64,000 bases of DNA, from positions 460,660,001-460,724,000 of the forward strand of contig CM097882.1 of NCBI GenBank assembly GCA_044892505.1, given 5' to 3'. This DNA is from Schmidtea nova. Its lineage: Eukaryota. Shown one piece after another: positions 10,387 through 46,656 of this stretch (positions within the stretch are counted from its first letter, which is position 1; every line of letters starts with the position of its first letter). The notes under the pieces are model-generated. The model ran no database searches. It was not told the origin of the DNA and worked only from the letters and a program-made list of their open reading frames with translations. The position numbers were made by a program, and so were the translations under genes.

Positions 10387-10437
<51 letters not shown>
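10387..10437. repeat. (AAT)n microsatellite flanking the Penelope-like insertion
   Basis: Directly visible AAT tandem run. Confidence 0.95.
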
Positions 10438-10438
<1 letters not shown>

Positions 10439-13844: not shown

Positions 13845-16759
13845 TTTTTATCTAAATTTTTTACGTTAGATTATAAGTGTATATATATATATATATATAT
13901 ATATAATGATTTTATTAAAAATATTTCAACTAAAATTATCGTATTACAGTATAATACAAGAAATTTAGAAAAATTCAAATTCAAAAGGTATTCCTTATTG
14001 TATTTTAAGTTGTATCAATAACTAAATTATTTACAAATAATGAGTTCGAATCTCAACTAAAATAACTAAAGCAATTACTTATCCTAAGAATAATTTTTTT
14101 TTAAGTACACGAATTCTTGGCTGAAATTTTTCAAGTGTAAATAAACACTTCATAAATGCTGTGTCGAAAATTCATGTACATATAAAAAAATATTACATCT
14201 TGTCAAAAAAAAGATATTAATTTCTGAAAAAGATAAGACTAAAGGTGAAAAACACGAGATATTAATAAAATAATTAGAGTAACTAAATGTCGATACTTTG
14301 CATAATTGCATAAATAATTGCATAATTGCATAAATAATTGCATAATTGAAAATATTAAAAAAATTAAATATTTTTAAAATCTATTTTATCAAAGATTAAC
14401 GCTCAAAAAGTATAATTATTGAAATATCTATTTCGTATAATGTATTAAAAGTATTTGCGAATTTCAGCCTAGTGAATTAAAACACTTTATACATAATTCT
14501 TGAAGTTTAATGACAAATATTAGAATTAATAATTAAATTTTAAAAAATTACTTACTATAATTTAAAATCATTTTTATTGATAATTTTAAACAAACGTCAT
14601 AATTTCTAATTTCATTATTTTTTTAAATTAAATGTTAAACAATTTTTTATGTGTTTTTTTCAATAATTTAATTTTTAATTATTTAACAAATGACAAATGT
14701 ATTATGAATTTTTGCAAGAAATTAGACTTTTTTTTGCAATATTTTAATTTTACATTTGAGACAAGAAAATATTGATATTGGTGGGTTGTTGATCGTCAAT
14801 ATGACCTTGACGTTGCTATGGCTCGTATCAACAACTCAACATACAAAACATTGAAATAACCATATTGTTACCCGTCACTATGTAACGTTGGTACTGTAAC
14901 AAGTGGGTGGGTATTCGCAATCAGTGAGCGTCGTCAATACGAAACTATGATTGACCGAATATCTCCTGGGTCCAAGAGCTACCGATAGAAGGTTTAATGC
15001 ACATTTTGTCCTTCCTATGCATTATTTGACTGCAGATATATATTTTAAATTAACCAAAAATGAAGTAATTTCGTCAATTGAAATTTATTAATTTGTCCCA
15101 ATCAATCATTATGCACGGTATTATCTAAATTCTCGGGAACTTTTGCACATTTACTCTATTCGTAAGCTCGTACTCAAACATATCATCGCCAACTCAATTC
15201 GGGGATCAATTATTCCTTCAGAAAATGCATATATATTTGGGAATATACAAATTTACCCTTATTTAGACCCAAGATTTTATTATTCTTGCGATTTTCTTAA
15301 ATTATTATGTCTTTTATATTTAAAATTCAAGTAAACTTTATTTATATCTTAATCCTATTGTCTATCTTGCTCTAAATTTATGATAGAATATTTATTAAAA
15401 TTTCAACATTTTAATTTTGAAATTTTGCCGAGGCCTTGGTAACGAAATTGATTTAGTAAAACTTCTCTAATTTGGTTTTAAGTCAAAATATTATAAAATT
15501 TCTCCTGAAATATCTTAATTAGTTTATAAAAATTATTGATCTTAAATGCAAAATTTTTAAACTGATTCTATTTATATAAATTCCTAGTATTTAGTCTTTT
15601 TTCTTTTCTCTTTTATTTTGTTTAAAAGAAAACATTAATCAACCTGATTGGTTGATTTCTTATATTATGGAATGACTTCATATAATAAGGATATTGATCG
15701 ATTATTTTCAAAAAAAGAAAAATTTGAATTTCTTTAATTTACATGTTCAAGTAAGAATTTTATTTCATTAATAATTTTCGTGAGTTACCGTTGTATTTTT
15801 AGGAAAAATCTAGCCTTTGGAATCAGTCCTTCTACCAACCTTTACATAACTGGAATTATTTATTTGCCAAACCTTGGAATTTTATATTTGATATTTTCGA
15901 TTGTTTCTTCTCTCTAATGGACTGCCAAATAAATTTTCAGTGTTACATTTTCCTCTTTTATTTTAGTGATTAAAGAATACGTGTCACCGATTCGTTTTTC
16001 AGATTTTAAGGCATTTTCATTATACATTAGGCGTTTCCCTCAATATGGGTTAAATTTTATGAATAATCTAATTAAAAAAAATATCGATTATCCATAATTT
16101 AAGAATCTAACGTGAAATTTGACTCATGAAGGGCTTTACGATATAGGCACCAAAGTGACAAACTGAGTTTTCATGAACAAGGTTTACAGTAATGTAGAAA
16201 ACTAGGAACAATGTGTTGCTAAATTTCTTTTAAAATTTTACTTGACGTTTAAATATTTCGGGTATCTCAGATATCAATTTTTTGCAATTTGTACTGTTAA
16301 AGTTGTCCGGTGATGTAAATTGATGATTGCATGAGATGGTTGGGAGTTATTCAGGACGTTGAGAGTATTGTGTTGAATGAGATGAGTTTGTTGGGCCAGC
16401 CAAATCGAGCAGCATCTGAAAATAATACACAATCAATAAAATAAATTAAATACAGAATAACAACAAAATAAATTACCAACACCAAAGCGTAACAAAATAG
16501 GCGGCAACATCTAAAAGAAATAAAATATTTTTCAAAACAACAAAAATCTTCAAAACTCACTCATGCGAAGCAGATAAAATTGGAATATGACAGCGCGTGG
16601 GCGGATGTCACCGAAGACCTAAAGCAAAATCAAATAAAAATTAAATCATACAAAAAATAAACTTACCGCATGATTAACCAAACAAATCGGCAAGTTAAGT
16701 TAGGCAGCAAAAAGCCGACAACATGAAAAATGAAGCAAACATACACACATACTCGATGC

Positions 16760-16900
16760 TGATTGGCTAACCAACAACACCGGTTGAGTATAAATACTGA
16801 AGTCAAATCAGTATTTGACAATGTTATTTTTACCAAGTGTAACTTGCAGTTGAGCACTGAGAACATTGTAAATCCAACTTGAAGGAGAAATAAAAGGTAA
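16760..16900 (+). promoter_or_regulatory. Candidate LTR promoter (ATTGG box, TATAAATA, Inr-like TCAGTA) followed by AATAAA and a 5-prime splice donor
   Basis: GATTGG at about 16761, TATAAATA at 16789-16796, TCAGTA at 16808-16813, AATAAA at about 16889-16894, AG|GTAATT with GT at 16897. Other TATA-like sites exist at 17836 and about 19629, so U3/R/U5 limits are not established. Confidence 0.4.
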
Positions 16901-17900
16901 TTGTTGTGTGTTAGATTTTTACTTTAAACCCTCATAATTATAATGGTTAACCATATTAAAATCCATAAGGTTTCCGGAGGCCTAACAGCCTGACGGATTC
17001 TCTGGCCTCTCAGCGCAACACAATCTTTCGGTTGTGAGGTGCTGATGCGGCGGGACCATAGGTGTATTAAATATTTGGAAAGCGGAAGGGGTTAAATGCA
17101 CATAGGGTATCGAGTAAGACCTAATGAACATGAACGAAATCAAGGTGGAAATGATCTAATATAAACGTTATGCATCACGATGATAGGGTATCGAGTATAA
17201 ACTGGTAGTCGTAAACGAGCGTAAAGTGAAGCCCGTTTTGTAGGGAGGATATATATCGTGGCGAAGTCTAGGCGAGGGATAGACGTGTAGAAAATAAAAT
17301 TGGTGTAGATGAATTAGATGACGACAAGGGTAGGTATATGTCGACATTAGCGCGTACGAGTTCGGGCATAGTGAACCTAGTATCAAGGGTTAAGTCAGTT
17401 GTGTTTAGTCGCCAGGATAGATGATAAATAAACTACAGGCATTGAGAACCGATAAAATGATGAACCCCAGTGAGTAAGGACCCCAGGAACTTGCAAGAAT
17501 TACCCGACATGGTATGATCATTACTAGTTAAATGAGGAAGTAATCGAAAACGACTGATGAGATTGGATGTGATTAAATAGCATTATCGATAAATAAAAAC
17601 TGTTAAAGTTGAGTGATTGAACCTGATTGTTGAAAATTAAGTATAATAGTGATCTGATTTATAAATGCAACCAATCGTGCGTAGCGGAATCGTCGAAAAT
17701 AAAACGCGTAGCACATTAACTTCAAGCTACCATCTAACACGACCCACGTCAAGTCCACAATGATTCCGGCAACAATCTAGAAGGTACCCCTCGGACCTAC
17801 AGACCTTAAAAATTTAAGACGGGTGGGTTGACTAATATAAATAGGCCCGTTATACCATAGAATCCATAGTTAACAAACAACCATCTTCTTTAGAAATACT

Positions 17901-18536
17901 ATGGTGAAACTAGAGAATCTCCAAAGGAAGTCGATGATCGCGCACCCGATAAAGATAGAGGACACCATCCTTCGTAAGAAACGGCGCACCCGCTCCGTCA
18001 TCCGACCAAATACGAACCCAAACATCAGAGGAGAGAACGAAGCACCTCGAAAGGTTGCAGAAGTATCACGTCGCCACCTACGACGGTGGATGAGGGCGCA
18101 CATGAGCTCGGCAGCTAGTACCCCAGCTTGTGCGTTCGGACTACAGTTGCGGTGGGAAGGAGACACCGATTGGGTACCCTCCTCGGATCATAGCAAGCCG
18201 GAGAATCCCCGATGGTTCTATCAATTCTGCGATGAGTTACAGCAACCCCGCTGGCTGCTAAGCACCGGAATGATGTCCGGAAAAGAGCTACATCAACTCG
18301 GATACACGCTGCTAGACAGGCCTCGGTGTGGCGACACTGGGGAAGTCTTCGTTTATTCAAACGCGCCAGGAAGCGTGTCCTTGGACCAACACCCCGAGCC
18401 CAAAGACCATCGTCTCTGGGAGGTATTCATCTTTCGGGACAAGTTAAGTTGGAGCCCCGCCCCGGAGTTCTATTACGAAAGTGGAATCCGTCGTGATGAG
18501 AACACGGCCGACCAGGAATTGCGACCCTTCATCTAA
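17901..18536 (+). CDS. LTR-encoded ORF-A, 211 aa, unknown function
   Basis: Intact ATG-to-stop ORF, identical in the other LTR. CTTTAG acceptor-like site 7 nt before the ATG and AATAAA at about 18585. Confidence 0.65.
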   Translation: MVKLENLQRKSMIAHPIKIEDTILRKKRRTRSVIRPNTNPNIRGENEAPRKVAEVSRRHLRRWMRAHMSSAASTPACAFGLQLRWEGDTDWVPSSDHSKPENPRWFYQFCDELQQPRWLLSTGMMSGKELHQLGYTLLDRPRCGDTGEVFVYSNAPGSVSLDQHPEPKDHRLWEVFIFRDKLSWSPAPEFYYESGIRRDENTADQELRPFI

Positions 18537-18728
18537 ATCGCAAGGAAATCGATCACTCGAAGGAATATTTGATGTGTATTAAAAATAAATGTATTCATTT
18601 TTTGGGTTTTGTTATGTCTTTGAATGTATGGAGCGATCTGAGAGCGAAACACCTGTTTGATAATAAAGATAGTGACTGGGAGAACAGACAAACCATACAT
18701 AACCCGATTAATTGTACATTTTACAGAT

Positions 18729-19292
18729 ATGAGTGAACACCCAACTAGGAACTACAAACAAGAGGCTAAAGAGCACAAAGTACGATCGCAAGTCCTAGAA
18801 AACCGCTTGCGACAGCTAAACGAAGAGCACCAGCGGATTAAAGACACGTGGTTCAACCCAGAGAGGGTTAAAACCATCCTGCAAGCCAGATACAGGGCGG
18901 AACGAACAATCGACGAGCAAGCTAGGGAGGTAGCAGCACTAAAGATGGAGCTGTCGAATTACTTGAGGGCATCAACCCAGGAATTTATCAACGAGCAATT
19001 ACGCCCAGTGATCAGGGCTAGCACTTTTAACCGATGGGTGAACTCAATATCGATGACAACAAGTACCCAAACGGAAATAGAAACCATCCCAATCACAACT
19101 ACCCCAACATCCCCAATAATTCAGGAAGGCTCGAAACGAACAAAGAGACGGAATCGCTTGGGAGCGAAAAAGCGTAGGGAGAGACGCGCGTATGCAGATC
19201 GCGTAGGAATAGAGGTAGACTTGCTCAGTGGTCTATCTGAGCAAGAACTACTAAATGTAATCCGACCCTCTGTATTATTAAACTATAAATAA
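18729..19292 (+). CDS. LTR-encoded ORF-B, 187 aa from the first ATG; coiled coil plus basic NLS-like C-terminus
   Basis: TTTTACAG acceptor 2 nt before ATG 18729. A diverged homologue at 59490-59630 is 28/46 aa identical over the C-terminus. Confidence 0.75.
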   Translation: MSEHPTRNYKQEAKEHKVRSQVLENRLRQLNEEHQRIKDTWFNPERVKTILQARYRAERTIDEQAREVAALKMELSNYLRASTQEFINEQLRPVIRASTFNRWVNSISMTTSTQTEIETIPITTTPTSPIIQEGSKRTKRRNRLGAKKRRERRAYADRVGIEVDLLSGLSEQELLNVIRPSVLLNYK

Positions 19293-19682
19293 ATGTATAA
19301 AATGAATGACTTGACTCGTCTTGTCTGTGTGTAGAATGTCTGAAAATTGAATGGGACTAAAACCCGGATTCGTTTAAACTGCAGATATCTAAAAAGTAAA
19401 TTACCCTAGGACAATAGAAAGGAGCATAAGTGGGACCGAAAGAAAGCCACAGACACCTTCTAACGGTAGTGGTGGACCCGTGAATAAACAAGGGAATAGT
19501 AGCCGAAAGGTTGCTCACCTGCCTTGTCATTTCACAACGTTGACACAGCACCAACATGATGAGTAGTTAGGGATACATCATGGGTGTCAGCGGGGAAATG
19601 TTTTTATGTTGGCGAGATCACCCTAACATATAAAATCCTAAGGATCTCAGTTGTCAATCCAACCAACACACCAGCATAAATT

Positions 19683-19700
19683 TGGGGGCTCAGCCGGGAT
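19683..19700 (+). promoter_or_regulatory. Primer-binding site complementary to the tRNA-Pro 3-prime end
   Basis: TGGGGGCTCAGCCGGGAT, 6 nt after the LTR end. 16/18 identical to the canonical tRNA-Pro PBS TGGGGGCTCGTCCGGGAT. Confidence 0.88.
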
Positions 19701-20230
19701 TAAATCGATCTTTGTGGGAAAAAGTGAATTCGATATCTGCGGACAGTTTAGAGCGCCTGAACCGGGATGAATTGAATTTAGCGAGGAAAGTAAAGTAAAT
19801 AATAGAGGGTTTGAGGGTCCTGAAGCAAAAATGAATCGGGTTGAAAAATAATAAATAAAAGTATGAGTGTAAAATAATGGGATTGATGAACGTAATGAAA
19901 ATATGCATGAGAATGAAAGTATGAATGATAATGGAATGAAGGTATGAGGATGAATGAAGCATGATGACTAGTATGTGGAGTAACAGTATGAAAAGTGATG
20001 AAAAGTATGCATGACGTAAGGTAAAAGTATGCGGAAAAGTGTGCATGAAAATGGTATGAGTGTGAACAACTAGCAATGATCATGTCGGGGCGACATTCAA
20101 GAACACGGGGGGACATACACGTAGTGACGCGAAACAGAACAACAGAAAGCGAACAGTAGGACTACCATAGAATAAGAATAAGAAATAATAAATAAAAATC
20201 GACAAAAATTAATGAGAATTCATTCAGGGG

Positions 20231-20689
20231 ATGGAGAACAAAATAAAAGAAATGCAAACGTTTTTCGAGACAAATAACGAGACAATGGAGATAACAATGA
20301 GAAAGTTAAGACGACTCGAGGCAGGAGGATATCACAAACCGACAAACAGCACAGAAAAAGCGGAAATGATGATGAGCATAAGTAAGAATAAGATAACAGT
20401 GGATACAGCAACACGATATCAGTGGTATAGAGAAAGATTAAACAACCCTGAGATGAATATCGAGTGCCACAGGCTAGAACAACAAATTGCAACCAGACAC
20501 GATGAGTGGATAAGAATAACAACCGAACATACGAGACAATATCTGACGTGGTACATCTGTGAAATGAATAAGATACAGATAATGTTGTTGCCGTGTGGGC
20601 ATTTCCGATTCTGTAATGAGTGTAAAATAAATGAACGATGTCCTATGTGCAACCTTCCCGTATCCGAGAAAATAACAGTGTACTTGTAA
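20231..20689 (+). CDS. Small protein with a C-terminal IAP-type RING finger (no BIR), upstream of gag
   Basis: WYICEMNKIQIMLLPCGHFRFCNECKINERCPMCNLPVSEKITVYL matches the C-terminal RING pattern C..C......F.PCGH...C..C.....CP.C plus hydrophobic tail. The first Cys is replaced by Trp. Confidence 0.75.
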   Translation: MENKIKEMQTFFETNNETMEITMRKLRRLEAGGYHKPTNSTEKAEMMMSISKNKITVDTATRYQWYRERLNNPEMNIECHRLEQQIATRHDEWIRITTEHTRQYLTWYICEMNKIQIMLLPCGHFRFCNECKINERCPMCNLPVSEKITVYL

Positions 20690-21390
20690 TAGAAATAAAG
20701 TTTTGAACAAGTGCAGTTGTTATTGAAATTATGAGGGTTTAATAAGGATTTGGTAAAAATGACCTAAGTAATAATGAGCTACTCACGAGTAGTCCGATAA
20801 GCACCCATTGGGGGGAACCAACTGATCAACTCACCCGAGATGTGTAGAAAGGGATCCAATCGCGGATATTGGAAAGCTCTTGTGATGTGATTGATCACCA
20901 CATCGTGCATCAGTGAACCAATGCGATCTTTTTATATATTTTGGTTGGGGTGAAAGGTAGGGACAACTCAACGAGGTTTAGGCGCGCGCAGAAAAAACTA
21001 TAAAAATAGGATGTTAAAACTGATCAGTAAGGAGAGAGAGAAAGCAATGAAATGAGTAAGATGAATAGCGAAACGTGGTATATGATGAAAGGCACGTAAT
21101 CAGCTCGCATAAGGTAAAATCAAGTAGAAAGGTTGACGAATCGATAATAGAATAAAGGGGTATAACAGAGGAACCGAGTAAATGGAAAACTCGAGGTTAA
21201 AGGAAATCCTTGAAAGAAAGGAAATGATAAAAGGGGTCCTGGAGAGAAAGGATTTGCCCATAGTTCTTGAAAGATAGAACTTAACGAAACGCGACAATAG
21301 ATTCTCCGAAGAAGCATAAGTGACCACTGGGAGGAACATCCCGAAGCAACACATGCAACCACTGAGAGATGATATTTCGAGTTTTCGTTC

Positions 21391-21932
21391 GTGAGCATAG
21401 GTCTCATAGTGAGCATAGGTCTCGTCATAAACATAACATCATAGTGAGCATAGGTCTCGTCGTAAACATAACACCCTAGTGAGCGTAGGTCTCGTCATAA
21501 AACACAACACCATAGTGAGCATAGTTCTCGTCCGTAAATATAAATCTTGTAGTGAGCAGAGTTCTCATCAATAAACGTAAGTTCTAACAGCGAACATAGT
21601 CCTCATCAGTGAGCGTAGTTCTCATCAATAAACATAGTCATCGTAGTGAGCGTAGTTCTCATCAGGAAGCATAATTCCTGTAGTCACCATCAGTGAGCAT
21701 AGTTCTCATCGGGGAACATAATCCCCGGAGCAAAGAGTTTCCATCAGTAAGCAAAACCCTCATAACAACCATGTTTTGCCAGTGAGCATAGTTCTCGTCA
21801 GTGAGCATAGTTCTCGTCAGTGAGCATAGTTCTCGTCAGTGAGCATAGTTCTCGTCATTGAGCATAGTTCTCGTCATTGAGCATAGTTCTCGTTAGTGAG
21901 CATAGTTCTCAGCGGTGAGCATAGTTCTCGTT
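21391..21932 (+). repeat. Tandem array of a 19-bp unit AGTGAGCATAGTTCTCGTC in the 5-prime leader
   Basis: Eight near-perfect copies at 21781-21932, preceded by many progressively degenerate copies. Confidence 0.9.
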
Positions 21933-22258
21933 CGAAATGGAATATTGAGTAAAAGCCCACGAGAAAGACGACGAAGTGAGGCAGATGAGGACTAAATTAC
22001 GTATAAAACTATCCGGATAGTGAAGATCAATAAGCGATAATGGAGATGAATAAGTGATAATGAGGATAAATGATGAATAGTGAAAATGAATAGCGAATAA
22101 TGAGGAATAAGGGTTGAAAGAAACCGAATTAATAACGAGAGAGTTGAAGGTGCGCACCTGGGTATTGATAAATGCGAGTAAGCTGATTATGTGGCCTAAC
22201 GACGTCAAAGTATGCATACAAGGAGGAGTAGAAAAGTAAAGTGAGTAAGTGAAGGGTG

Positions 22259-22720
22259 CTGACTGGAAAACCCAGCAGACCATGAGATTCGATGGGAATA
22301 AAATGAAACCGGTTTGTTAAGACGGGTAAAGTGGTAAAGACGCTAGCTGGAAAACACAGCAGGTCAATGATAACGATCAGGAAAGATCGAGATAACAAAA
22401 GTGAGTAATAATAAAGTGATAAAATTGAGGACGCTGACTGGAAGACCCAGCAGGTCAAAAGTGATGATCATCGGAGTAAAGAGCAGGTAAAAGTCGACAG
22501 TAAAGAGATAAAGGGTGGATAATAAGAGCGCTGACTGGAAAAACCCAGCAGGCTAATGAAACGACAAGTGAGGTCGAGAATAATGAAGCAGAAGTAAAAG
22601 GTGAGATTAAAAGCGCTGACTGGAAAACCCAGCAGGCTAATGAAATAATGAGTGAAGTTGAGAGAAACAGAGTTCGAGATAAAAGGTGAGATTAAGGGCG
22701 CTGATTGGAAAGCCCAACAG
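22259..22720 (+). repeat. Six spaced copies of a bulged-A hairpin (CTG-A-CTGG-loop-CCAG-CAG)
   Basis: Copies start at 22259, 22343, 22434, 22531, 22616 and 22701 (period about 85-97 bp). Variant copies keep base pairing. Confidence 0.85.
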
Positions 22721-23597
22721 GCCAACGAGAGACGTCAGTTGACTCAAAGGTGAGTAGAGATGAGAATTGAAATGAAGTAGTAAACGCAGTGTGAATAGGA
22801 AATAAAGCGAATAGTTGAGAAACAGAGTAGTCGACAGAAAAGGGGAAATTTGAACTCAGAGCCAGAGAAGCCTGAGAAAAGTAAAGGGGATAATAAGAGC
22901 GCTGAGCGACAAAGTAATTGGAGAACTGGGGAAAAGTAATTGGTGTATTTGATAATGAATAGATAATTGATGCGACTGCATAGATAATTTAAATAGACTT
23001 AAAATCAAGGGAAATGGGAAAAATGGGGATCTTCATGAATTATGACTACACCCGTGAGAGGGACGAGAAACACGATAACGGGGACGTATCGTGTAAGTGA
23101 TTATTTGTTTTAAGGAAACAAATCAATCAAGCAATTCAAAGCAATCTAGCAGTCAGAGCAATCAAAGGAAACAAATCAAAGAAGAAGCAAAGCAAAAGCG
23201 GAGTAGAAAATCAGTTGAGAATATAAGAAGTTGAGGAATAGACAAAATTGAGGGACGAGAAACAAGATCAGGTATAATACCAATCTTAACGGAAGCAGAA
23301 AGAAAAGCAGCAAAAAGGACAAGAACAGGTAATAAGCCTAAGCAACAAAAGAACAAACAAGTAGAGATCAGCGACAATTCGAGTAATAAAGAGAATCAAG
23401 AAGAAACCCCAGAGGATCCAGAAGTACGAAACGAAGTAGAAACGATAGACAGTGAACCAGTCAGTGAAAACATAACGAGAAGCGAATCAAGAGATAACGA
23501 AACAGAGAGTAGTGAAGAAGAAGAGTCGAATTCAGAAACAAGTGGTGAACTAGAAGCAAAGAAAACTAGTACAGTATTCCAAGACAGTGGAATCGGG

Positions 23598-26500
23598 ATG
23601 AGTGAACACAGAGAGGATCTGAGAGAAAAATTCAAGGGCGAACCATTTAATGGAGACGCCAGTAGATTAGACACGTTTCTAAAGGAATTTGGCATATTCG
23701 TGGATATATGCGGATGGAGTGCAGAAACGTTAGCGAATCGAATCCCGCTATACTTGAAAGATAGCGCGTTGGATCTGTATATCGAAAAGAGATCTGGAAG
23801 TAGTCCACCCAGAACGTGGGAAGCAATCAAGGAGTTCTTCCAACAGACGTTTGGGATAAATAAAGTGCTGAATGAAGCATTCGATGAGTTTTCAGCAAGA
23901 AAACAAAGGAGAAACGAGTCAAACGCGGTGTACGCAAGTGAATTAAGAAAGTTGGCGAAACTGGCGTTCAACAGAGGAAGCCCAGTAGACGAAGAATTGA
24001 TGACAGCGTTATTCGTACGAGGTCTCAGGAGACCTGACATCAGAGCACAAGTGGGATGCAAGGGATGTAAAACAGTAGATGAAGCGTTGGAAGCAGCCAA
24101 CCTATTCGAATTGCATATGGCAATGAACGACATGAGAATTACGGCGGTAATGGGAAAAACGACAGAAGATGAAGAACAAGGAAAAAGAAACATGAATCAG
24201 AGTATTCCCCATTCACAGAGATTGTTCAAAGAACCGCCAGCGCGGAAGAATAACGGATATATCACGGTGGACCCGAATGGAGGAAATAGCTACAATGACA
24301 GGCAGAATAGGCAATGTCAGACGTGTGGAAAAAACGGACATTGGCAACAAGAGTGTTTTCAGAATGTAGCCTGTAAACTGTGTGGACAAAAGGGTCACTC
24401 AGAAAATCGATGTTATGGGAAAACGTGTTACACATGTGGAAAAACCGGACACATGTCAAGAGACTGTAATCAACAGAGAAGTTGGTCAAACAGTGGAAAT
24501 AGACCGAATTACGGGAATCGACCAAGCTATGGGAATCAGGGTCAACAACGGAATAACCCAAACAGCAGTGCAAATGAAGCCAGTATGAAAGAAGCCAAGT
24601 TGAGACAGGAGGTATCCAGATTACACGAGATAATCGAAAGCATGGCAAAGGGAAGCCAGCAAGCGGCTCAACCAAAGATAAACATGATCCAGTTAATAGA
24701 AGCTGAGGCTGAAAGAGAAAATAGGGAGAGCCAACAGAAACATAATCAAGAATGGGCTAGAGTACGACGAGAAGAAGAACAAGTCAGGCAACAACGATTA
24801 CAACAGTTAAAAAAGGGAAATCCAAGGATCAACATGATGCGAGCAATGATGGAAGAGAAGCAGCAAGATGAGTCAGACGAGTTAGAAGTTAAAGAGAAAA
24901 GAAACGAAGAGCAGAAACAAGAAGAAGTGAATCAGGAAGTGGAAACTGCGGAACAGAGTAAAAAAGATGAAGAAGCAGAAAAAGAAACGAATCAAGAAGA
25001 AGAAGTGAGAATTAAACAAAGAGGAATGTTAGTGATCATGCCGAATGATCACGTGTGGCGATTCAAATACGATGTAAAAGAAGAAGTGGGAAGATTGTTC
25101 AATAAAGTAAATGAGATGATTCCGGGAGTAACGAAACTACCCAGAGAAGCATTCCTACAAACAGAGGATTTGCCAGAAGTGAAGTTAAAGATGACCGACA
25201 TATGGGAAGATATGGGAGTAACAGAGACGAAAATAAACGTGATGATCATCAGAGAGGTGGAACCGGAGAAAATCCCACCACCAGTGAAACATCAAACGCG
25301 TATCAGTAGAATATTTAAAGGAAAAATAAGACGAAGACGGATGGAAGAAATAGAAGAGTTAGAGAAAAGAATGGGAAAAGCTGAAATAACGGGAACCGAG
25401 AAGGAACTAATACAGGAAGTTAGCAAAAACGAAGCGAGACCAACCGCGCATATTGGGATGCTGAGATACCCAAGACAAGAGTTGTCAGATGAAGAAGACG
25501 ACAGCGAAGTTAGCAGTCTGGCAGGAAACATGCTAAAGGAACCGGAAAACGAGGATAAAAAGATGGAAGTAGTCGAGACGATAGAAACGATGTCAGTAAA
25601 GAAAGAGGAAATTCAGAAGCTGATGGATAACGCGTTGGAAGTAATCCATAACGAGGAGTTTATCGACGGGAAACGATACCGAAAGTTTATACGAGCAGTA
25701 TGGCAGATAAAGTATAAAGAGTGGTTACAAGAAAGAGAAGTGAGGGTAATACAAGAGTTCATAGAGAAGTTATTGAAAGAACCACTCAACGAATACGTAA
25801 TACAAATATGGATAAACGAGTGTTCACCGAGAATCTGGATAAGGAACCCAATGACGGATGGAATTTACAGATGGGTTGAGGACAGATTGGGAAGCTCGTA
25901 CAAAGACAAATTCATATATTCGGAAAACGGATTGGTGAGAAAAGGAACGCATATGATAGACACAGGCATATGGCCAGGAGAAATAACGACGTTATCAATA
26001 TGCAACACCAAAAAGGAAGAGAACTTACAAGGAATCGTCAAAGAAGCGAATACGTGTTACGAGATGAGAATAAAACCTCAGTTGATAGAGGCAAAAGAGA
26101 GAATCTTGGCGGAGAATTTGAATACGATGATAGAACAGATCATCCAACAAATCAAGAAACATCGAAAGGAATTGACGAAAAGCGAGTATGAGAATTTGAA
26201 GCAGTGTATCGAGAACATACGAGATACAAGTCAAACGAGACACTCAAATTTCAAAACGGACAAGCTAATTGCCAAGATGGGAAAAGAAATGTTTAAAAGA
26301 GGAGAGGTATCAGATCTGAAGATTACCGTGAGATTGCCGAACGAGGAGACAAGACAAATTGAAGTAATACCAGATAGTAAAGTGGGAGAAATAGTAGATG
26401 TCATCAATGAGACGATATTACAACGAGAACGGGAAGACGAATTCGAAGATGACATTGCGATAAAATACAAAGAACATATACTGAACGAACGTGACGAAAG

Positions 26501-29500
26501 ACGAGCGTACAAAATCGGCATATGGGATAATTATCAGACAATACATGTCATCAGAATGGATGACGTGCCAAGAGCAACACCAAGAGATGAGGAAAGGAAA
26601 AAGAAACGACAAGAGGACGTTATGCGCAAGTTGAGACAGATAGTGGAAATCTATCGGAACTGGCAGATGAAGCCAGAATGGGAGACAATATTGGGAGAAT
26701 TAGATCTTAACAGACGACGATTGACGCCAGTAGAGAAGCAATGGGATAACAAAGAGAAATGTTGGAAAGTGAAAAGAGGCGTGTATGAAGAAGATCCAGA
26801 AGAAGAAGACAGATATGAACTGAATACGAAACGGATATGTATGGTAACAAGGAGGTTATTACCAACGGACTTAGACGGACCAGAAACTGCAGTAATATGG
26901 GCAGAATTGGAGAAACAGAAAACGAGTGAATTAATCGAGCTGTTAAGAGGAAATACTCGGGGAAAAAGACAAACAATAAAAGGCTTAGCACAATTCATAA
27001 TCACAAATGGAGAAGACATAACGAACTTGAGAAAAGTAGCTAAAGCGATAGCAGAATACAAGAGAGTTAACGAGTGGTGTCCAGAGCAACTAGACGATGT
27101 AATAAAAAAGTGGAGAAACAAAGAGTTTGCGGAGGAAACGCCACAGAAAATACATTTGAGGATAATGTATCCGAATCAGAGAAAAGAAGAGTTTTGGGTG
27201 ATGCTAACAGAGAAAGTGAAAAGTATTAAAGAGAAACTGATGTATGAACTACCATTCCACCTGCAACATCAAGGACGATCGTTGGATAATAGTTTGGAAA
27301 TCTGGCTGACACCAGTACAATTGGATTTAATGAATACGCTAACAGTGGCACAGATAGTGGGTCAACCACTGAAGTTTAAAGAGGAAAAGAAAACGAAAGG
27401 AAGCATGAGTACACCGAGTCCGATGAAGTCAACAATGACCCCAGGAACAAGTTCGGGACAAGCAAGGACAACACCAATAAAAACGAGAGAGAGAACACCG
27501 CCAGAAGCGTATGACGTCGATGAGATACTAACAGATAGTGATGAGGCGATAGAAGAATTAACGAAGTTGACTCAAAAACCAACAGCGAACATTTTCGACA
27601 GAATAATAGAGATGCCAATAACGTCACCAGCAGAAATCGACGATCAAGGAGTGGAACAGGAGGTAGTCATAGAAATGGTAAACGAATCGGAAGACGAGCA
27701 AGAACAACCACAGTTTACTCAAGAAATGGAAAGATGGTTAGAACAGCGAGCGAACGAAGGAAGAGATGTTACGGAAGAAACAGGAAGAGCAACGAGATTT
27801 GTAGAAACCGGAACTGGAATGGAAAAACGACCAAGAGGAAGACCAAAGATAGATCCAACAACAGCAATTCCAAAGACAAGGGAAGAAAGGAGACAAGAGC
27901 AATGGGAGATTTGCTTGAAGAAACTGGATAAAATTGCAGAAATCAGAGGAAAAGAGGAGAATCAAGTTTGTCAAGGAGAAGAATGGCTCACCAAAACGAT
28001 AATGGATGTGTTAGCGATAATTGATCCAGAATTAAAGAATTTGTGGCGAATAAACGAACCTAGTACAAAGGCAAGGATGCTACACAATGCAATAGCACCA
28101 ATTATGCCAGAATTGATAAAGGCAAAAACAAAATCGAATCATCTAGATTGGCAAGGAACCACGATGTTAATAAAAAGGCTACTTAACGGAGCAGAAACGG
28201 ACAGCAAATATCTAGTAGCAATCTCGTATACGATATACAATTTGTTAACGCTAAGCCGAGGAAGTCCGAAGTCAAGTCCGATGGGAAGACATATCAAGAA
28301 CACGGCGATGATTATCGAGAAGGAAATTGAACCATATATCCTCAGAAAAGGAGGATGGGAAAAGTTCATAAAAGAGAACCAGACAAAAGAAGGGTCTAAC
28401 GTGATGAGAAAGAAACTCGAAGGAGTATTGAGGGAAATGGAGAATAGACAAACGATGCAAGGAAACGGAAGATCGACGTTGAATCTAAATTCGATAATCA
28501 TGATGATGTTAGTATGGTTGTTAAGCACGGAAGGTGTAACAACATTTGAAGTATTTGATTGTGATCAAATGAAGTTAGGAGAAAAGTACTCATTGAGAGG
28601 TACGGAGCAATGCAAAGATGCAACTCCAGTAGAGTTGAGAGAGATCAAAAAGGAACAATGGTATAACGTGTATCAAGAAGCAGAACTAATAAAGACAATG
28701 GTGAATGAATGCAAAGTGCAAAAGACGAGATTCGCATTCTATTGTGGGAGAGGACATTACTCAGCAATTGTCATGCCAGGAACGGAAAGAGAACCAATCG
28801 TGTTACAAGGAGAAGATTGTGAAGCATTGTTTAAACATGGAGAAGTAACAACAAGGGATAAAATCAAGATAAAAGGAAAACCAGGAATGATGTTACAGCA
28901 GACGTATTATGTAGCAGGACGAATTACGGGAGGAGAAGGGTATTGTCAAGGAGAAACCTACCCAATATTTGGAGTACCTGCGACCAACTTAGTGGTAATG
29001 GATACGTACATAGTCGAACTGAAAAGTTACGAAGCATTCTTCGAACCAACAACAGGAGAAATGAAAACGTTATCCATGTGTAAAATTGACAGAAGCATGT
29101 GTCAAACGGGAATGTCAACATTGGTGTATAAACCAAAAGTGAACGAATGTCAATTACAACTGCTACAAGGAGCAAAGTTCGACGAAATTCAAGGAAAAAC
29201 ATTCCAAGAAGAAGATGATGATGACAAAGCTAGAGCAAAACATCTCAAAGAGGCTTTAGAGAATAAAAGACAATTGAGACCAGATCATAAAGAAAAACGG
29301 ATAGAGATGAGAACCACACCAACAGTGTTGATAACCACAAATCAGGATGTGGGCATGAGATTCATAAAAGGGAAAGCAACCCTTAAGTGCAGTACAACAG
29401 TATACGAAACAAATTATCCAGGAATATACGTGTCAAAGCAGGAAGTGCCTAATGCGAAACCCAAGATCGACACAATGGATATCAAGCTACACTTGTATGT

Positions 29501-31823
29501 GAATAATAAAATGGATTTCTTATTCCATAGAGGACAAGCCTCATTACAAAAAGTGTACTATGATCTGATAAATAACGATTGTATACTGAATCGGGAAATA
29601 TTAAAGACAAAGTTGGCCGTAGCGATTACGAATCCAGATAGCGCGATGCCGTTATTACCACTGAGAGAAGGACATTTCGGAAGAGTGGTCGGAGAAGCAA
29701 TGTACGTATACATTTGCGAAAAAACACACGCATCGCTAGCAGCAACAACGCAGTTGAAACCTGGACAATGTACAAATGAATTAGAAATCGATTATAAAGG
29801 AAAAGTACGATACGTTCAACCGGTGACGAGAATCACCAATCCACCAGGGTTTGAACCAAATCCATTCAACTGTAGTAATGCGTACGGACCACTTTATCAG
29901 AAGCCAGATGGCAAATGGGTTATGTTCCCAGGAAGAACCGAAGTATTAGCACCAAGAGAATTCGAACTAATGCAGTTGTCAAAGGATAGACAGTTCAGCG
30001 ACGTAGATGTCTCAAACAACGGAATCTATAGTCCAAAGGATTTAGAAGCAGCAAGACAGAATATACTATTCCCGGCAAGAAGAGAAGCATTACTGTCAAA
30101 TATCGTAACGATAACGGGAGGAACGAATTATCGAGAAGGACCAAATTACGAACTGCTGTTGTCACCGGCACATTTCAAGAAAGCCACAGAAAATATGATG
30201 AAGGCAATGTGGGGGAGATTCCTGATATTCGGACAAATGATGGCTGGAATACTGGGTGTTATATTGATAATACAAATCGTCAGAGTGATAATAACGCAAA
30301 TGTTAGCGTGTTTCGATATCTACAAAAGAGAAAAGAAAGTGAATTGGAAGATGGTAGTAGGATTTTTACCATTCCTTGCGAAAACGATGGTGTTACACGG
30401 ACACTCAAAAGACATACATCGAATAAAGAGGTTGTTGAAGATACTTGCAAAAATGAGAGGAACAAACGAAGATGTCGGAAGGAAATTCAAAAAGATAATG
30501 CAAGACGAGCAAGCAAGGCGACAATTAAAGAAAGAAAGGAAAGGATTATGGGAAAGAGTGAGAGGATATCGAACGCAGGATGACTCAAGCAATGATGATG
30601 ATGATGATGACAATCGAGGAGGACAAGCGAATATAAACCAGATTCCACAATACACCGAAAAGAGTGCAGTTGAGAATTGGAGATACAGCGCTCCACCTCA
30701 GTCAATGTATAACGAACCGATATACAAAGCGAAGCCGAATATGATGCAGATGATGCCGATGACAAGTATATACCCGATAATTCCAGAAGGATGCAAAGTA
30801 AAACGATGCAGAAGTGTAGACCCGTTGGAAGACACGCACACGATAGCGGTTATGTCCACAAATATGGGACCGATTTTAACAACAACCGTAGAAATAAACG
30901 GAAGAGAAATTGAAGCTATGATCGATACAGGCGCGAATATTTCGGCGATCGACATCAACTATATACCAGAGAAAAGCCAAGGAGAAATTGAGAAAACGAA
31001 TGTACATGTAATCGCGTGCAGCCAAGAGACAGTAGAAGTAGCCGGAAGATGGTTCGTAAAAATTAAGCATCGAGGTGCAGAAATCAACACGTACATCGCT
31101 GTAATACCATCGCTGAGTGTACCATGTATTATTGGAACTGACCTGATGCCAGACCTGTTCAAGGAAATCGTAATTGATCTAGGAGCAATGAAACTAAAAG
31201 ATAGAACAGGAAAAATCTGCAGGATGAAAGTTAAAGTGGCAAGTGCGGAACAAATAGTAGTACCAGCGAGACACGAAATGATGTGCTATGTCAAGATCGA
31301 TTCAACAATAAAGGGAGATATGATATTCGAACCAAGTAAGAAGTTCGAAGCAAAGAAAGAATTACCAATGGCAAGAGAATTGGTTACGATAAACCAAGAA
31401 GGAGAGATACCAATTAATCTGGTAAACTTCGATGAAGAGGACAAGATAATATACGAGAATGAGAGATTGGGTAAATTGACACCCATGTCCGAAATCGAAA
31501 TACCAGACAAGAACGAGAAAAGCAAAGACGAATTACCATGGAAAATCGACAGTGTGTTGTTAGACGAACGACAAAAAGAACAGTTACAAAAACTGTTGAT
31601 GGAATATAAAGATATATTCGCAGCATCCGATTTAGATCTGGGAACATGTGATGTAACATTACACACGATACCGTTGACGGACGAAACGCCAATCGCATTA
31701 CGACCATACAAACTGGCAGAAGCTCAAAAAGCAGTGGCAGAAGAAGAGGTACAAAAGATGTTAGATGCAGAGGTCATCGAACCTAGTTGCTCACCCTGGC
31801 AATTCCCAGTGGTGATGGTGTAA
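23598..31823 (+). CDS. Polyprotein part 1: Gag (capsid, 3 CCHC knuckles), ubiquitin-like domains, AT-hook, Bcl-2-like domain, class III envelope, aspartic protease, start of RT
   Basis: Capsid-like FNGDASRLDTFLKEF. Knuckles CQTCGKNGHWQQEC, CKLCGQKGHSENRC, CYTCGKTGHMSRDC. AT-hook KRPRGRPK; BH2-like YILRKGGWEKF; protease MIDTGANISAI. Ends at a TAA inside the RT motif PVVMV*KKDG. Confidence 0.92.
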   Translation: MSEHREDLREKFKGEPFNGDASRLDTFLKEFGIFVDICGWSAETLANRIPLYLKDSALDLYIEKRSGSSPPRTWEAIKEFFQQTFGINKVLNEAFDEFSARKQRRNESNAVYASELRKLAKLAFNRGSPVDEELMTALFVRGLRRPDIRAQVGCKGCKTVDEALEAANLFELHMAMNDMRITAVMGKTTEDEEQGKRNMNQSIPHSQRLFKEPPARKNNGYITVDPNGGNSYNDRQNRQCQTCGKNGHWQQECFQNVACKLCGQKGHSENRCYGKTCYTCGKTGHMSRDCNQQRSWSNSGNRPNYGNRPSYGNQGQQRNNPNSSANEASMKEAKLRQEVSRLHEIIESMAKGSQQAAQPKINMIQLIEAEAERENRESQQKHNQEWARVRREEEQVRQQRLQQLKKGNPRINMMRAMMEEKQQDESDELEVKEKRNEEQKQEEVNQEVETAEQSKKDEEAEKETNQEEEVRIKQRGMLVIMPNDHVWRFKYDVKEEVGRLFNKVNEMIPGVTKLPREAFLQTEDLPEVKLKMTDIWEDMGVTETKINVMIIREVEPEKIPPPVKHQTRISRIFKGKIRRRRMEEIEELEKRMGKAEITGTEKELIQEVSKNEARPTAHIGMLRYPRQELSDEEDDSEVSSLAGNMLKEPENEDKKMEVVETIETMSVKKEEIQKLMDNALEVIHNEEFIDGKRYRKFIRAVWQIKYKEWLQEREVRVIQEFIEKLLKEPLNEYVIQIWINECSPRIWIRNPMTDGIYRWVEDRLGSSYKDKFIYSENGLVRKGTHMIDTGIWPGEITTLSICNTKKEENLQGIVKEANTCYEMRIKPQLIEAKERILAENLNTMIEQIIQQIKKHRKELTKSEYENLKQCIENIRDTSQTRHSNFKTDKLIAKMGKEMFKRGEVSDLKITVRLPNEETRQIEVIPDSKVGEIVDVINETILQREREDEFEDDIAIKYKEHILNERDERRAYKIGIWDNYQTIHVIRMDDVPRATPRDEERKKKRQEDVMRKLRQIVEIYRNWQMKPEWETILGELDLNRRRLTPVEKQWDNKEKCWKVKRGVYEEDPEEEDRYELNTKRICMVTRRLLPTDLDGPETAVIWAELEKQKTSELIELLRGNTRGKRQTIKGLAQFIITNGEDITNLRKVAKAIAEYKRVNEWCPEQLDDVIKKWRNKEFAEETPQKIHLRIMYPNQRKEEFWVMLTEKVKSIKEKLMYELPFHLQHQGRSLDNSLEIWLTPVQLDLMNTLTVAQIVGQPLKFKEEKKTKGSMSTPSPMKSTMTPGTSSGQARTTPIKTRERTPPEAYDVDEILTDSDEAIEELTKLTQKPTANIFDRIIEMPITSPAEIDDQGVEQEVVIEMVNESEDEQEQPQFTQEMERWLEQRANEGRDVTEETGRATRFVETGTGMEKRPRGRPKIDPTTAIPKTREERRQEQWEICLKKLDKIAEIRGKEENQVCQGEEWLTKTIMDVLAIIDPELKNLWRINEPSTKARMLHNAIAPIMPELIKAKTKSNHLDWQGTTMLIKRLLNGAETDSKYLVAISYTIYNLLTLSRGSPKSSPMGRHIKNTAMIIEKEIEPYILRKGGWEKFIKENQTKEGSNVMRKKLEGVLREMENRQTMQGNGRSTLNLNSIIMMMLVWLLSTEGVTTFEVFDCDQMKLGEKYSLRGTEQCKDATPVELREIKKEQWYNVYQEAELIKTMVNECKVQKTRFAFYCGRGHYSAIVMPGTEREPIVLQGEDCEALFKHGEVTTRDKIKIKGKPGMMLQQTYYVAGRITGGEGYCQGETYPIFGVPATNLVVMDTYIVELKSYEAFFEPTTGEMKTLSMCKIDRSMCQTGMSTLVYKPKVNECQLQLLQGAKFDEIQGKTFQEEDDDDKARAKHLKEALENKRQLRPDHKEKRIEMRTTPTVLITTNQDVGMRFIKGKATLKCSTTVYETNYPGIYVSKQEVPNAKPKIDTMDIKLHLYVNNKMDFLFHRGQASLQKVYYDLINNDCILNREILKTKLAVAITNPDSAMPLLPLREGHFGRVVGEAMYVYICEKTHASLAATTQLKPGQCTNELEIDYKGKVRYVQPVTRITNPPGFEPNPFNCSNAYGPLYQKPDGKWVMFPGRTEVLAPREFELMQLSKDRQFSDVDVSNNGIYSPKDLEAARQNILFPARREALLSNIVTITGGTNYREGPNYELLLSPAHFKKATENMMKAMWGRFLIFGQMMAGILGVILIIQIVRVIITQMLACFDIYKREKKVNWKMVVGFLPFLAKTMVLHGHSKDIHRIKRLLKILAKMRGTNEDVGRKFKKIMQDEQARRQLKKERKGLWERVRGYRTQDDSSNDDDDDDNRGGQANINQIPQYTEKSAVENWRYSAPPQSMYNEPIYKAKPNMMQMMPMTSIYPIIPEGCKVKRCRSVDPLEDTHTIAVMSTNMGPILTTTVEINGREIEAMIDTGANISAIDINYIPEKSQGEIEKTNVHVIACSQETVEVAGRWFVKIKHRGAEINTYIAVIPSLSVPCIIGTDLMPDLFKEIVIDLGAMKLKDRTGKICRMKVKVASAEQIVVPARHEMMCYVKIDSTIKGDMIFEPSKKFEAKKELPMARELVTINQEGEIPINLVNFDEEDKIIYENERLGKLTPMSEIEIPDKNEKSKDELPWKIDSVLLDERQKEQLQKLLMEYKDIFAASDLDLGTCDVTLHTIPLTDETPIALRPYKLAEAQKAVAEEEVQKMLDAEVIEPSCSPWQFPVVMV
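27960..28380 (+). other. Bcl-2-like domain within the polyprotein
   Basis: BH2-like EIEPYILRKGGWEKFIKE (compare W I xxx GGW xx F). Weaker BH1-like segment IKRLLNGAETDSKYLVAISYTI at the expected spacing. Boundaries approximate. Confidence 0.6.
28488..30320 (+). other. Envelope glycoprotein, chuvirus-G / herpes-gB-like class III fusogen
   Basis: Signal-like SIIMMMLVWLLSTEG, then FEVFDC...EQC and a Cys-rich ectodomain. CILNREILKTKLAVAITNPD...GHFGRVVGEAMYVYIC and GIYSPKDLEAARQNILFPARR resemble chuvirus-type G motifs. TM segment FLIFGQMMAGILGVILIIQIV. Boundaries approximate. Confidence 0.8.
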
Positions 31824-42497: not shown

Positions 42498-44009
42498 TGT
42501 TGGGCCAGCCAAATCGAGCAGCATCTGAAAATAATACACAATCAATAAAATAAATTAAATACAGAATAACAACAAAATAAATTACCAACACCAAAGCGTA
42601 ACAAAATAGGCGGCAACATCTAAAAGAAATAAAATATTAATCAAAACAACAAAAATCTTCAAAACTCACTCATGCGAAGCAGATAAAATTGGAATATGAC
42701 AGCGCGTGGGCGGATGTCACCGAAGACCTAAAGCAAAATCAAATAAAAATTAAATCATACAAAAAATAAACTTACCGCATGATTAACCAAACAAATCGGC
42801 AAGTTAAGTTAGGCAGCAAAAAGCCGACAACATGAAAAATGAAGCAAACATACACACATACTCGATGCTGATTGGCTAACCAACAACACCGGTTGAGTAT
42901 AAATACTGAAGTCAAATCAGTATTTGACAATGTTATTTTTACCAAGTGTAACTTGCAGTTGAGCACTGAGAACATTGTAAATCCAACTTGAAGGAGAAAT
43001 AAAAGGTAATTGTTGTGTGTTAGATTTTTACTTTAAACCCTCATAATTATAATGGTTAACCATATTAAAATCCATAAGGTTTCCGGAGGCCTAACAGCCT
43101 GACGGATTCTCTGGCCTCTCAGCGCAACACAATCTTTCGGTTGTGAGGTGCTGATGCGGCGGGACCATAGGTGTATTAAATATTTGGAAAGCGGAAGGGG
43201 TTAAATGCACATAGGGTATCGAGTAAGACCTAATGAACATGAACGAAATCAAGGTGGAAATGATCTAATATAAACGTTATGCATCACGATGATAGGGTAT
43301 CGAGTATAAACTGGTAGTCGTAAACGAGCGTAAAGTGAAGCCCGTTTTGTAGGGAGGATATATATCGTGGCGAAGTCTAGGCGAGGGATAGACGTGTAGA
43401 AAATAAAATTGGTGTAGATGAATTAGATGACGACAAGGGTAGGTATATGTCGACATTAGCGCGTACGAGTTCGGGCATAGTGAACCTAGTATCAAGGGTT
43501 AAGTCAGTTGTGTTTAGTCGCCAGGATAGATGATAAATAAACTACAGGCATTGAGAACCGATAAAATGATGAACCCCAGTGAGTAAGGACCCCAGGAACT
43601 TGCAAGAATTACCCGACATGGTATGATCATTACTAGTTAAATGAGGAAGTAATCGAAAACGACTGATGAGATTGGATGTGATTAAATAGCATTATCGATA
43701 AATAAAAACTGTTAAAGTTGAGTGATTGAACCTGATTGTTGAAAATTAAGTATAATAGTGATCTGATTTATAAATGCAACCAATCGTGCGTAGCGGAATC
43801 GTCGAAAATAAAACGCGTAGCACATTAACTTCAAGCTACCATCTAACACGACCCACGTCAAGTCCACAATGATTCCGGCAACAATCTAGAAGGTACCCCT
43901 CGGACCTACAGACCTTAAAAATTTAAGACGGGTGGGTTGACTAATATAAATAGGCCCGTTATACCATAGAATCCATAGTTAACAAACAACCATCTTCTTT
44001 AGAAATACT

Positions 44010-44645: not shown

Positions 44646-44837
44646 ATCGCAAGGAAATCGATCACTCGAAGGAATATTTGATGTGTATTAAAAATAAATG
44701 TATTCATTTTTTGGGTTTTGTTATGTCTTTGAATGTATGGAGCGATCTGAGAGCGAAACACCTGTTTGATAATAAAGATAGTGACTGGGAGAACAGACAA
44801 ACCATACATAACCCGATTAATTGTACATTTTACAGAT

Positions 44838-46361: not shown

Positions 46362-46588
46362 TATTATTATTATCAATAATTCTCATAATGACTATAGATC
46401 AAATTTTTTTTATAAACAATAACACAATATTTCGGCACAGCCTTTATCAAGTGTGTATATACACACTTGATAAAGGCTGTGCGGAAATATTGTGTTATTG
46501 TTTATAAAAAAAATTTGATCTATAGTCATTATGAGAATTATTGATAATAATAATAAAAAAAGATCAAAGGTGAAAAAAGATAATTATG

Positions 46589-46593
<5 letters not shown>
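46362..46593. mobile_element. Minimal Penelope-like pLTR insertion forming a near-perfect palindrome
   Basis: Arms of about 97 bp centred at 46458/46459. Sequence nearly identical to the pLTR at 10437-10570; flanked by (TA)n. Confidence 0.85.

Positions 46594-46656
<63 letters not shown>

Follow-up and report, generated by a model that had tools for sequence, protein, structure and literature searches.

Introduction

Giant LTR retroelements of the Burro/GYPSM1 type are known from planarians (PMC6431247). According to the available sections of that account, they are about 30 kb long, with long LTRs, tandem repeats, a Gag with three CCHC knuckles, a mononegavirus-like envelope in frame between gag and pol, and cargo genes of the ankyrin, MATH/TRAF and RING types, all of which recur in the element described here; the same sections describe no leader RNA structure, splicing or non-AUG start.

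Complex retroviruses export their unspliced RNA by means of arginine-rich proteins (PMC3856414, in the portion available), and arginine-rich peptides of this kind read RNA stems in the major groove (PMC9062085, abridged text). As far as the accessible parts of these two sources go, the Rev/RRE, Rex/RxRE, Rem, Rej and Rec systems share with the present locus an arginine-rich helical protein (here a candidate) made from a spliced message (here predicted) and a structured RNA with several binding sites in an intron (here also predicted). They differ in that the RNA is one large branched structure there and a set of independent 27-nt hairpins here, that the candidate protein of the planarian element has no sequence or fold match to known proteins and that the hairpin is not essential in one related lineage, E. 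The Psi and dimer-linkage regions of retroviruses and retrotransposons, as excerpted from three sources (PMC5035971; PMC7828637; PMC3735527), likewise lie between the primer-binding site (PBS) and gag, near palindromes, and confinement to unspliced RNA is common to them and, by prediction, to the hairpins; the array described here is placed 2.6 kb from the PBS and has variable A-rich loops, and its hairpin was lost in a Gag-bearing family that spreads.

This article describes an array of six bulged-A hairpins in the leader of a Burro-type element of Schmidtea nova and its possible function. The window, that is, the whole stretch of DNA analyzed, comprises 64,000 nt. Its study yielded an RNA motif that is small and covaries, together with two named candidate ligands. 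The papers searched describe no replication signals for this family of giant retroelements. If the arginine-rich protein binds the hairpin, this would be a Rev/RRE-like switch outside the vertebrate retroviruses. The motif is likewise undescribed in the literature searched on Burro transcripts and splicing, non-AUG gag, bulged-A stem-loops and invertebrate Rev-like proteins; the primary genome paper, which lay outside that search, may matter in this respect.

The Host Element

The array resides in an LTR element of 29.4 kb (16389-45785) with a 4-bp target-site duplication. The Pfam domains follow the order PF00098, PF24664, PF00077, PF00078, PF17917 and PF00665 (Gag CCHC, envelope-like, then PR-RT-RH-IN), the glycoprotein, a Monjiviricetes-type fusion protein, lies in frame between Gag and protease, and the cargo ORFs encode ankyrin, TRAF-MATH and RING proteins; a BIR domain was not found in this element. 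By its size, LTRs, Gag/envelope/pol order and cargo it is a Burro-type giant Ty3/gypsy element, and in this copy an in-frame stop (31821-31823) interrupts RT. The features used below are as follows.

16389-19676, plus strand: 5' LTR, 3288 bp, with six differences from the 3' LTR
16788-16902, plus strand: predicted start and first exon within the LTR, with a TATA-like box at 16788-16799 and a donor-like site at about 16897
18729-19292, plus strand: LTR ORF2, 187 aa, candidate ligand of the hairpins
19683-19700, plus strand: primer-binding site, which we take to be of the tRNA-Pro type
20231-20689, plus strand: RING-finger ORF with an acceptor-like site directly before its ATG
21392-21931, plus strand: second array, 19-nt unit, 17 copies by strict pattern
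22009-22219, plus strand: three palindromes of 10-12 nt (at 22009, 22148 and 22210), candidate dimerisation sites
23104-23114, plus strand: T-rich acceptor-like site that opens an ATG-free stretch, conserved in all lineages examined
23247-23249, plus strand: predicted non-AUG start codon of Gag, an ATT conserved in the gag frame
23235-31823, plus strand: frame for gag (three CCHC knuckles), the envelope-like glycoprotein and protease
42498-45785, plus strand: 3' LTR

The window's element belongs to family A. Its three palindromes have counterparts in the same order in sister lineages, and the 19-nt array differs in sequence from the arrays found there at the same position. Beyond this genome only distant relatives of Gag were found (one protein at 27% and one metagenome locus at 22%, none below E 1e-30).

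Structure of the Hairpin Array

The six bulged-A hairpins proposed by the sequence-only reading are all present between 22255 and 22723, the limits given at that time having enclosed the 7-bp core.

22255-22281, plus strand: hairpin 1, with a 3-bp basal stem, a bulged G, a 3-bp stem, a bulged A, a 4-bp stem and a 5-nt loop
22339-22365, plus strand: hairpin 2, bulged A one pair lower and top pair missing
22430-22456, plus strand: hairpin 3
22527-22554, plus strand: hairpin 4, with a 6-nt loop
22612-22638, plus strand: hairpin 5
22697-22723, plus strand: hairpin 6, with a paired C-G to T-A change

All six hairpins also have, below the core, a bulged G and a basal stem of 3 bp, neither of which was in the first description. 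The basal stem exists in four versions (GGT/ACC, GAC/GTC twice, AGC/GCT twice and GGC/GCC), every one of which pairs. A strict two-bulge Watson-Crick descriptor matched six times between 21951 and 23235, compared with a mean of 0.005 (maximum 1) in 200 dinucleotide shuffles. Folded singly, the hairpins reach -10.1 to -13.0 kcal/mol (z -2.4 to -4.3), and in its own 37-38 nt each one dominates the ensemble (frequency 0.77-0.90); all six also form within the 501-nt array, for which z is -3.2 and equal stability was attained by none of 100 shuffles. The spacers are purine-rich (68-77%), as had been stated, and their supposed lack of structure does not extend to the first two, which hold small hairpins (-9.1 and -5.5 kcal/mol). 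The array was also placed "just upstream of gag"; it does precede gag, at some distance, for from its end it is about 520 nt to the likely Gag start and 875 nt to the first in-frame ATG.

No long ORF starts within the array, and the window's LTR contains no copy of the hairpin. Rfam covariance models gave no family match over 19600-23700, the one chance-level match (E 0.56) being outside the array, and likenesses to the K-turn, SECIS and boxB were considered and dropped as their partner motifs are not conserved in the hairpin alignments. The hairpin would act like the known cis-acting hairpins of retroviral genomic RNA and is a member of no described family.

A resemblance to MS2-type bulged-A operators had also been suggested. 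The MS2 operator has a fixed 4-nt loop, conserved A residues, a bulged A two pairs from the loop and a stem of free sequence, and reading by the MS2 coat protein, like that by zinc knuckles, depends on loop bases. What the present hairpins have in common with the MS2 TR and PP7 operators is their small size and a single bulged A on the 5' strand, the 4-bp upper stem being nearer to PP7 than to MS2. The likeness fails beyond this point: the loops vary in sequence and in length (4-7 nt), the bulge is 4-5 pairs from the loop, the stem bases are the conserved part, a second bulge is present and no start codon is covered. A levivirus coat protein was not found among the 11 ORFs scanned.

Minus-strand folding is almost as good in the two minus-strand versions tested, so that energy alone cannot fix the strand, which was taken from the sense of the element. 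This near-equality would also suit a site that works at the DNA level, or a formerly useful motif multiplied in tandem without function, a reading with which two further facts agree: every lineage expanded a different short unit in this leader, and the copy number varies (five in some copies). It is nevertheless the least probable of the explanations considered here, given that the two arms, which an unpaired base makes unequal, change together, that four different basal stems all pair and that the variants shared among copies avoid the stems, as detailed below.

Covariation and Selection Within Family A

A search for the array produced 163 candidates, of which 40 were scored and 30 copies, including the window's own locus, were compared; the core pattern had 636 matches, against 0 for a reversed control. 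Six hairpins were counted in 29 of the 30 copies and five (by pattern) in the remaining one. The paired C-G to T-A change of copy 6, already pointed out from the window alone, was confirmed: both changes occur in 11 of the 30 genomic copies, neither in 19 and a one-sided change in 0, probably as the result of one event inherited by a sublineage. The re-registration of copy 2 with its bulged A kept was equally confirmed, stems of 2 bp and 5 bp being found in 29/30 copies, and the top pair of this hairpin is lost only in the window's copy (1/30). Other departures from pairing are the loss of the top pair of copy 4 in two copies and a mismatched outermost basal pair of copy 6 in 15/30.

Variants common to at least two of the 30 copies are found in 6 of 118 stem columns and in 46 of 306 spacer columns (p=0.005), in 0/12 bulge columns and in 1/33 loop columns. 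Singleton variants show no significant depletion in the stems (9/118, against 40/306 in the spacers, p=0.13). Depletion of shared variants from the stems that is not seen among singletons points to selection in replicating elements; the variant pattern as a whole, judged from the copies' sequences, points to selection during replication followed by neutral decay after insertion. Across copies, pairing is kept by paired changes, and this covariation supports a conserved RNA hairpin. A protein-binding RNA hairpin, as was first suggested, is likely, with the covariation and the selection on stems in its support.

A Single Hairpin in Sister Lineages

Related elements were sampled by means of a PBS pattern with 2945 matches, 80 of the first 100 listed being read downstream, a non-random sample from which known family-A sites are mostly omitted. 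In lineages B, C and D, whose Gag capsid region is 60-63% identical, one hairpin occupies the same place in the leader, where conserved palindromes and small hairpins follow one another in a fixed order. Its upper stem has a C-G pair where family A has U-A, and it has no basal stem. The sister-type hairpin pattern matched 306 times (12 for the control); 28 of 30 loci with this pattern lie in a homologous context and two are unrelated. Where B-D loci were chosen by the PBS alone (n=7), all seven core pairs are present in five and one mismatch in two; among those chosen by an upstream anchor (n=10), the hairpin is intact in six and has private mismatches in four. The two-bulge hairpin was absent from the smaller env-bearing families (10 elements, 20 stretches).

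The hairpin is present in single copy in 28/28 of the homologous sister loci, so the "multivalent" character once attributed to it applies to family A only. Because the sisters carry one copy at the same leader position, the sixfold array represents a lineage-specific expansion; on these sequence comparisons, the hairpin unit is old, and the sixfold array and the second bulge are particular to family A.

An alignment of 20 rows from family A and its sisters shows paired changes on both sides at 5 of 10 base pairs, and slid registers score worse; as the rows are related and were preselected for at least 6/7 core pairs and a 5-nt loop, the test is partly circular and its shuffle counts cannot be read as probabilities. 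In the sister rows the basal positions do not pair. Little or no variation across the 20 rows is seen in the bulged A, the two pairs beneath it and the top two G-C pairs, and the loops vary. The A of lineage D is predicted to pair and not to bulge (unpaired probability 0.11-0.12). G-U pairs in D were considered as evidence for the strand and rejected, since D prefers another register.

Loss or Absence of the Hairpin in Other Lineages

Lineage E consists of elements with a 1.43-kb LTR devoid of ORFs and a single Gag frame of 1025 aa, with no pol, env or cargo. Its Gag keeps the three knuckles, and part of the capsid/knuckle region is repeated within it. The young elements are the following.

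L282:6880-9954, minus strand, together with L279, L091 and L092: lineage E elements, roughly 11-12 kb

The LTR pairs of two of the E elements are 99.6 and 99.9% alike. With locus ages inferred from divergence, the 7-bp fold is lost in 15/15 young E loci, five of them retaining a 5-bp remnant (-1.3 to -2.2 kcal/mol), and the full fold is present in 6 of 14 older, more diverged loci. The latter were already Gag-only: a gag match was found in 6/12, and sense-strand env, protease, RT and integrase in 0/12 within 10 kb. One older copy carries an independent double change in the hairpin. On the record of the sequences, the hairpin persisted for a while in a Gag-only parasite, which then lost it and went on spreading.

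These observations bear directly on a packaging function, which the sequence-only reading had put forward as a Psi signal. A Psi would be needed in cis by every mobilised relative, and young E spreads without the fold; the hairpin is therefore auxiliary, and its role as an essential packaging signal is unlikely, an accessory role being possible. In such a role the knuckles or the basic N-terminal extension of Gag would bind the hairpins on unspliced RNA as one of several redundant packaging or dimerisation sites and contribute to selection of the genome. The position of the array between the PBS and the gag acceptor (19700 < 22255-22723 < 23114), among conserved palindromes, fits this reading, as does the retention of the hairpin by older Gag-only E copies, one with its independent double change. 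Psi is usually upstream of gag (PMC7828637), MS2 has redundant packaging signals whose single loss is harmless (PMC4751978) and the BARE retrotransposon has separate pools of translated and packaged RNA (PMC3735527), each according to the sections available of these papers. Young E, on the other side, retains Gag and spreads with nearly identical LTR pairs although the fold is lost, and the parasite of clade F shares with its helper the upstream modules and a tandem array, not the hairpin zone of A-E. Zinc knuckles, moreover, usually read a conserved loop G, and the loops here are A-rich and variable and have none. All considered, accessory packaging is rather unlikely to be the main function of the hairpins.

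The parasite in question is a Gag-less family whose elements begin with a protease-ankyrin frame and which is the most abundant PBS-bearing family in the sample (45/80 loci: L099, L104 and 43 others; L083). It has the LTR end and the upstream leader (81% identity) in common with the autonomous lineage F. The array-type hairpin was found in 0/45 loci of the Gag-less family and in 0/9 loci of lineage F; the absence from the former was rejected as evidence against Psi, its helper being also without the hairpin. The Gag-less family has a conserved hairpin of its own (4-bp stem, 5-nt loop, U-rich bulge) at the place where A-E have the bulged-A hairpin.

Expression of Gag

A stop at 23232 precedes the gag frame, in which no Met occurs for 121 codons in 28 of the 30 family-A copies, those that could be traced. 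In the window, the conserved ATT at 23247 lies 117 codons upstream of the first ATG (23598). Its AAA-ATT-G context is found in frame, 3-5 codons after the stop, in family A and in 28/28 sister loci, in 25 of which the ATT precedes the first Met by 148-194 codons; lineage F has the same arrangement in 8/9 loci. Shared synonymous and non-synonymous variants of the family-A extension stand at 15:15 in frame, compared with 3:27 and 8:21 out of frame and with 29:5 downstream of the Gag ATG, and the only length variant of the extension is in frame. The extension appears, from these ratios, to be under moderate coding constraint in family A. The smaller env-bearing families have 34-38 codons of open frame upstream of the first Met.

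No ATG occurs between the acceptor-like site and the first in-frame Met in 29 family-A copies (14,229 nt), and three occur in 25 sister loci (14,296 nt). The 400 nt upstream of the site contain, by contrast, 216 ATGs in 11,600 nt and 222 in 10,000 nt, respectively (18.6 and 22.2 per kb); the copies being related, this evidence amounts to about four lineages. The ATG-free stretch of the window measures about 483 nt, where about seven ATGs are expected from composition. From the LTR end to the gag frame there are 91 ATGs, eight of them between the array and the acceptor-like site. Acceptor-like AG sites also occur upstream of the accessory ATGs of this element.

The conserved acceptor, the ATG-free stretch and the conserved ATT together predict a spliced, non-AUG-initiated Gag message. 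Gag is thus likely, from sequence conservation, to be made from a spliced message with an ATT start, in B-D and F as in family A. A single donor would serve many acceptors; the gag mRNA would begin at 23115, with the donor in the LTR or on a trans-spliced leader, and ribosomes would start at the ATT and then reach the ATG by leaky scanning. If true, a spliced, ATT-started Gag would help explain the abundant Gag-less and Gag-only parasites of this genome. Since the array stands upstream of the acceptor-like site at 23114, the hairpins would be absent from gag mRNA, and array, PBS and palindromes would be limited to unspliced RNA and to messages spliced further upstream, for instance that of the RING gene.

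No RNA record was listed for 19600-24200. In four runs (contigs of unknown kind, short pieces) no joint at 23114 appeared among the 15 of 49 joints listed, a result that carries no information on splicing. Genomic copies in which the exon start is preceded by sequence that is not T-rich were sought with two patterns, which gave 0 matches; this is uninformative, as spliced RNA would lack the PBS. The AUG of a flatworm spliced leader, considered as a possible Gag start, was rejected because the acceptor-to-ATT distance occurs in all three phases and an in-frame stop stands 3-5 codons before the ATT.

The hairpins had also been proposed as a translation element, which in the form of an IRES or enhancer would start Gag at the ATT on unspliced RNA. 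The lack of an AUG for 117 codons and the 91 ATGs ahead of the gag frame would call for such a device; eight ATGs between array and acceptor-like site and none after it fit splicing and scanning instead, and the ATT-type start is also found in lineage F and young E, where the hairpin is missing. A translation role for gag is unlikely if gag is read from RNA spliced at 23114, and as an explanation of the hairpins it is very improbable.

A splicing regulator acting through host factors would use the bulged A as a branch A, hide a decoy 3' splice site within the hairpin or recruit proteins that tune the gag acceptor. The branch-point consensus is yUnAy, and this word in the 5' arm, with YAG at the end of the 3' arm, is present in 5/6 window copies and all sister variants, short words whose presence may in part reflect chance. 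Donor-like GT(A/G)AG words precede four of the six copies by 12-30 nt, and the array lies 390-860 nt upstream of the gag acceptor. There is, however, no pyrimidine tract, the YAG is a mere consequence of pairing with the 5' arm, and copy 2 breaks the consensus, yet keeps its fold in 29/30 copies. Splice control of this kind is considered improbable.

A Rev/RRE-Like Reading and Its Candidate Ligand

Export control, splice control and accessory packaging are all possible functions of the hairpins. The reading tentatively preferred here, as the best of those at hand and still short of an even chance, is that they form a Rev/RRE-like binding site on unspliced RNA. The hairpins are a conserved leader stem-loop of Burro-type elements, sixfold in this family; placed, as is likely, within the intron of the gag message, they would be a mark of unspliced RNA only. 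The candidate ligand that would bind them is ORF2, the arginine-rich protein from the element's own LTR, and binding would help unspliced RNA to evade splicing or to exit the nucleus in the fashion of Rev and RRE. More copies of the hairpin would tune the amount of RNA left unspliced.

ORF2 (187 aa) is composed of long helices, a linker, an arginine-rich helix and a leucine-rich tail. The arginine-rich motif is present in six aligned homologues as one predicted helix (residues 146-167), and the hydrophobic, leucine-rich tail, an export-signal candidate, is present and poorly conserved. By motif and model, the element thus encodes the combination of arginine-rich helix and oligomerisation helices that characterizes Rev. 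No Pfam match below E 0.07 was obtained for ORF2, comparison with known proteins gave Atlas scores below 0.8, and no viral fold matched at E 0.001.

TAR exemplifies groove reading of RNA by arginine-rich peptides. The arginine-rich helix of ORF2 would similarly read the stem bases beside the bulge in a widened major groove, and conserved stem bases with variable loops are the pattern expected for this type of reading. Against a reading of the bulge stands the A of lineage D, which is predicted to be paired.

Homologues of ORF2 with the arginine-rich motif occur in lineages B and C and in 2/3 D LTRs, all of which keep the hairpin. No homologue was found in 5/5 LTRs of lineage E, nor elsewhere in two E elements; as E lost ORF2 and the fold and retained Gag, the balance tips toward ORF2 as the ligand. 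This co-loss counts as one event. Other points speak against ORF2 in this role. The older E elements, Gag-only at that stage, kept the hairpin (full fold in 6/14 loci). With a helper's protein able to act in trans, loss of the target by E would not be a necessary outcome. In lineage F, one of the two LTRs examined has an ORF2-like gene, and the hairpin is absent (0/9). In the Gag-less family, ORF2 is absent from one LTR read whole and present in another (L063).

A wider extension of the Rev/RRE-like reading is doubtful, if conceivable: that an invertebrate LTR element runs a complex-retrovirus programme in which all proteins come from spliced messages (Gag at AUU), a separate pool of RNA serves as untranslated genome, the arginine-rich LTR protein rescues this pool via the hairpin, the copy number, from 1 to 6, is the dial, and both parts were lost in the parasite.

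Additional Features of the Window

The 3' end of the LTR (19300-19676) forms several long hairpins, and lineage E retains the final 300 nt at 70-83% to B-D; this region is a better candidate for an essential cis signal than the array hairpin. Within LTR ORF1, a segment of 156 nt bounded by GT..AG (18345-18500) is missing from contigs of three runs, which could reflect a spliced RNA or a copy made from one.

The 19-nt unit of the second array (21392-21931) may form a weak hairpin of 3-4 bp with an AUAG-containing loop, a word that we presume to be of the Musashi/hnRNP A1 type; two units fold like shuffles (z -1.0). Sister lineages carry other tandem units there, and AUAG or GAAA loops occur in several of these.

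A single TGA (34374-34376) separates integrase from the ankyrin frame, which continues in the same reading frame and whose first ATG (34485), unlike those of the other accessory genes, has no obvious acceptor-like site directly before it; expression by readthrough or from an upstream acceptor is possible.

Outside the host element, a separate RT-bearing element with inverted-repeat ends occupies 10433-13283 (ORF 10695-13118, PF00078), and a short palindromic stub near 46400 (46391-46595) has the same ends; both presumably resemble Penelope-like insertions. A further RING-finger ORF (61861-63474) lies within a 386-bp inverted repeat pair (61653-64000).
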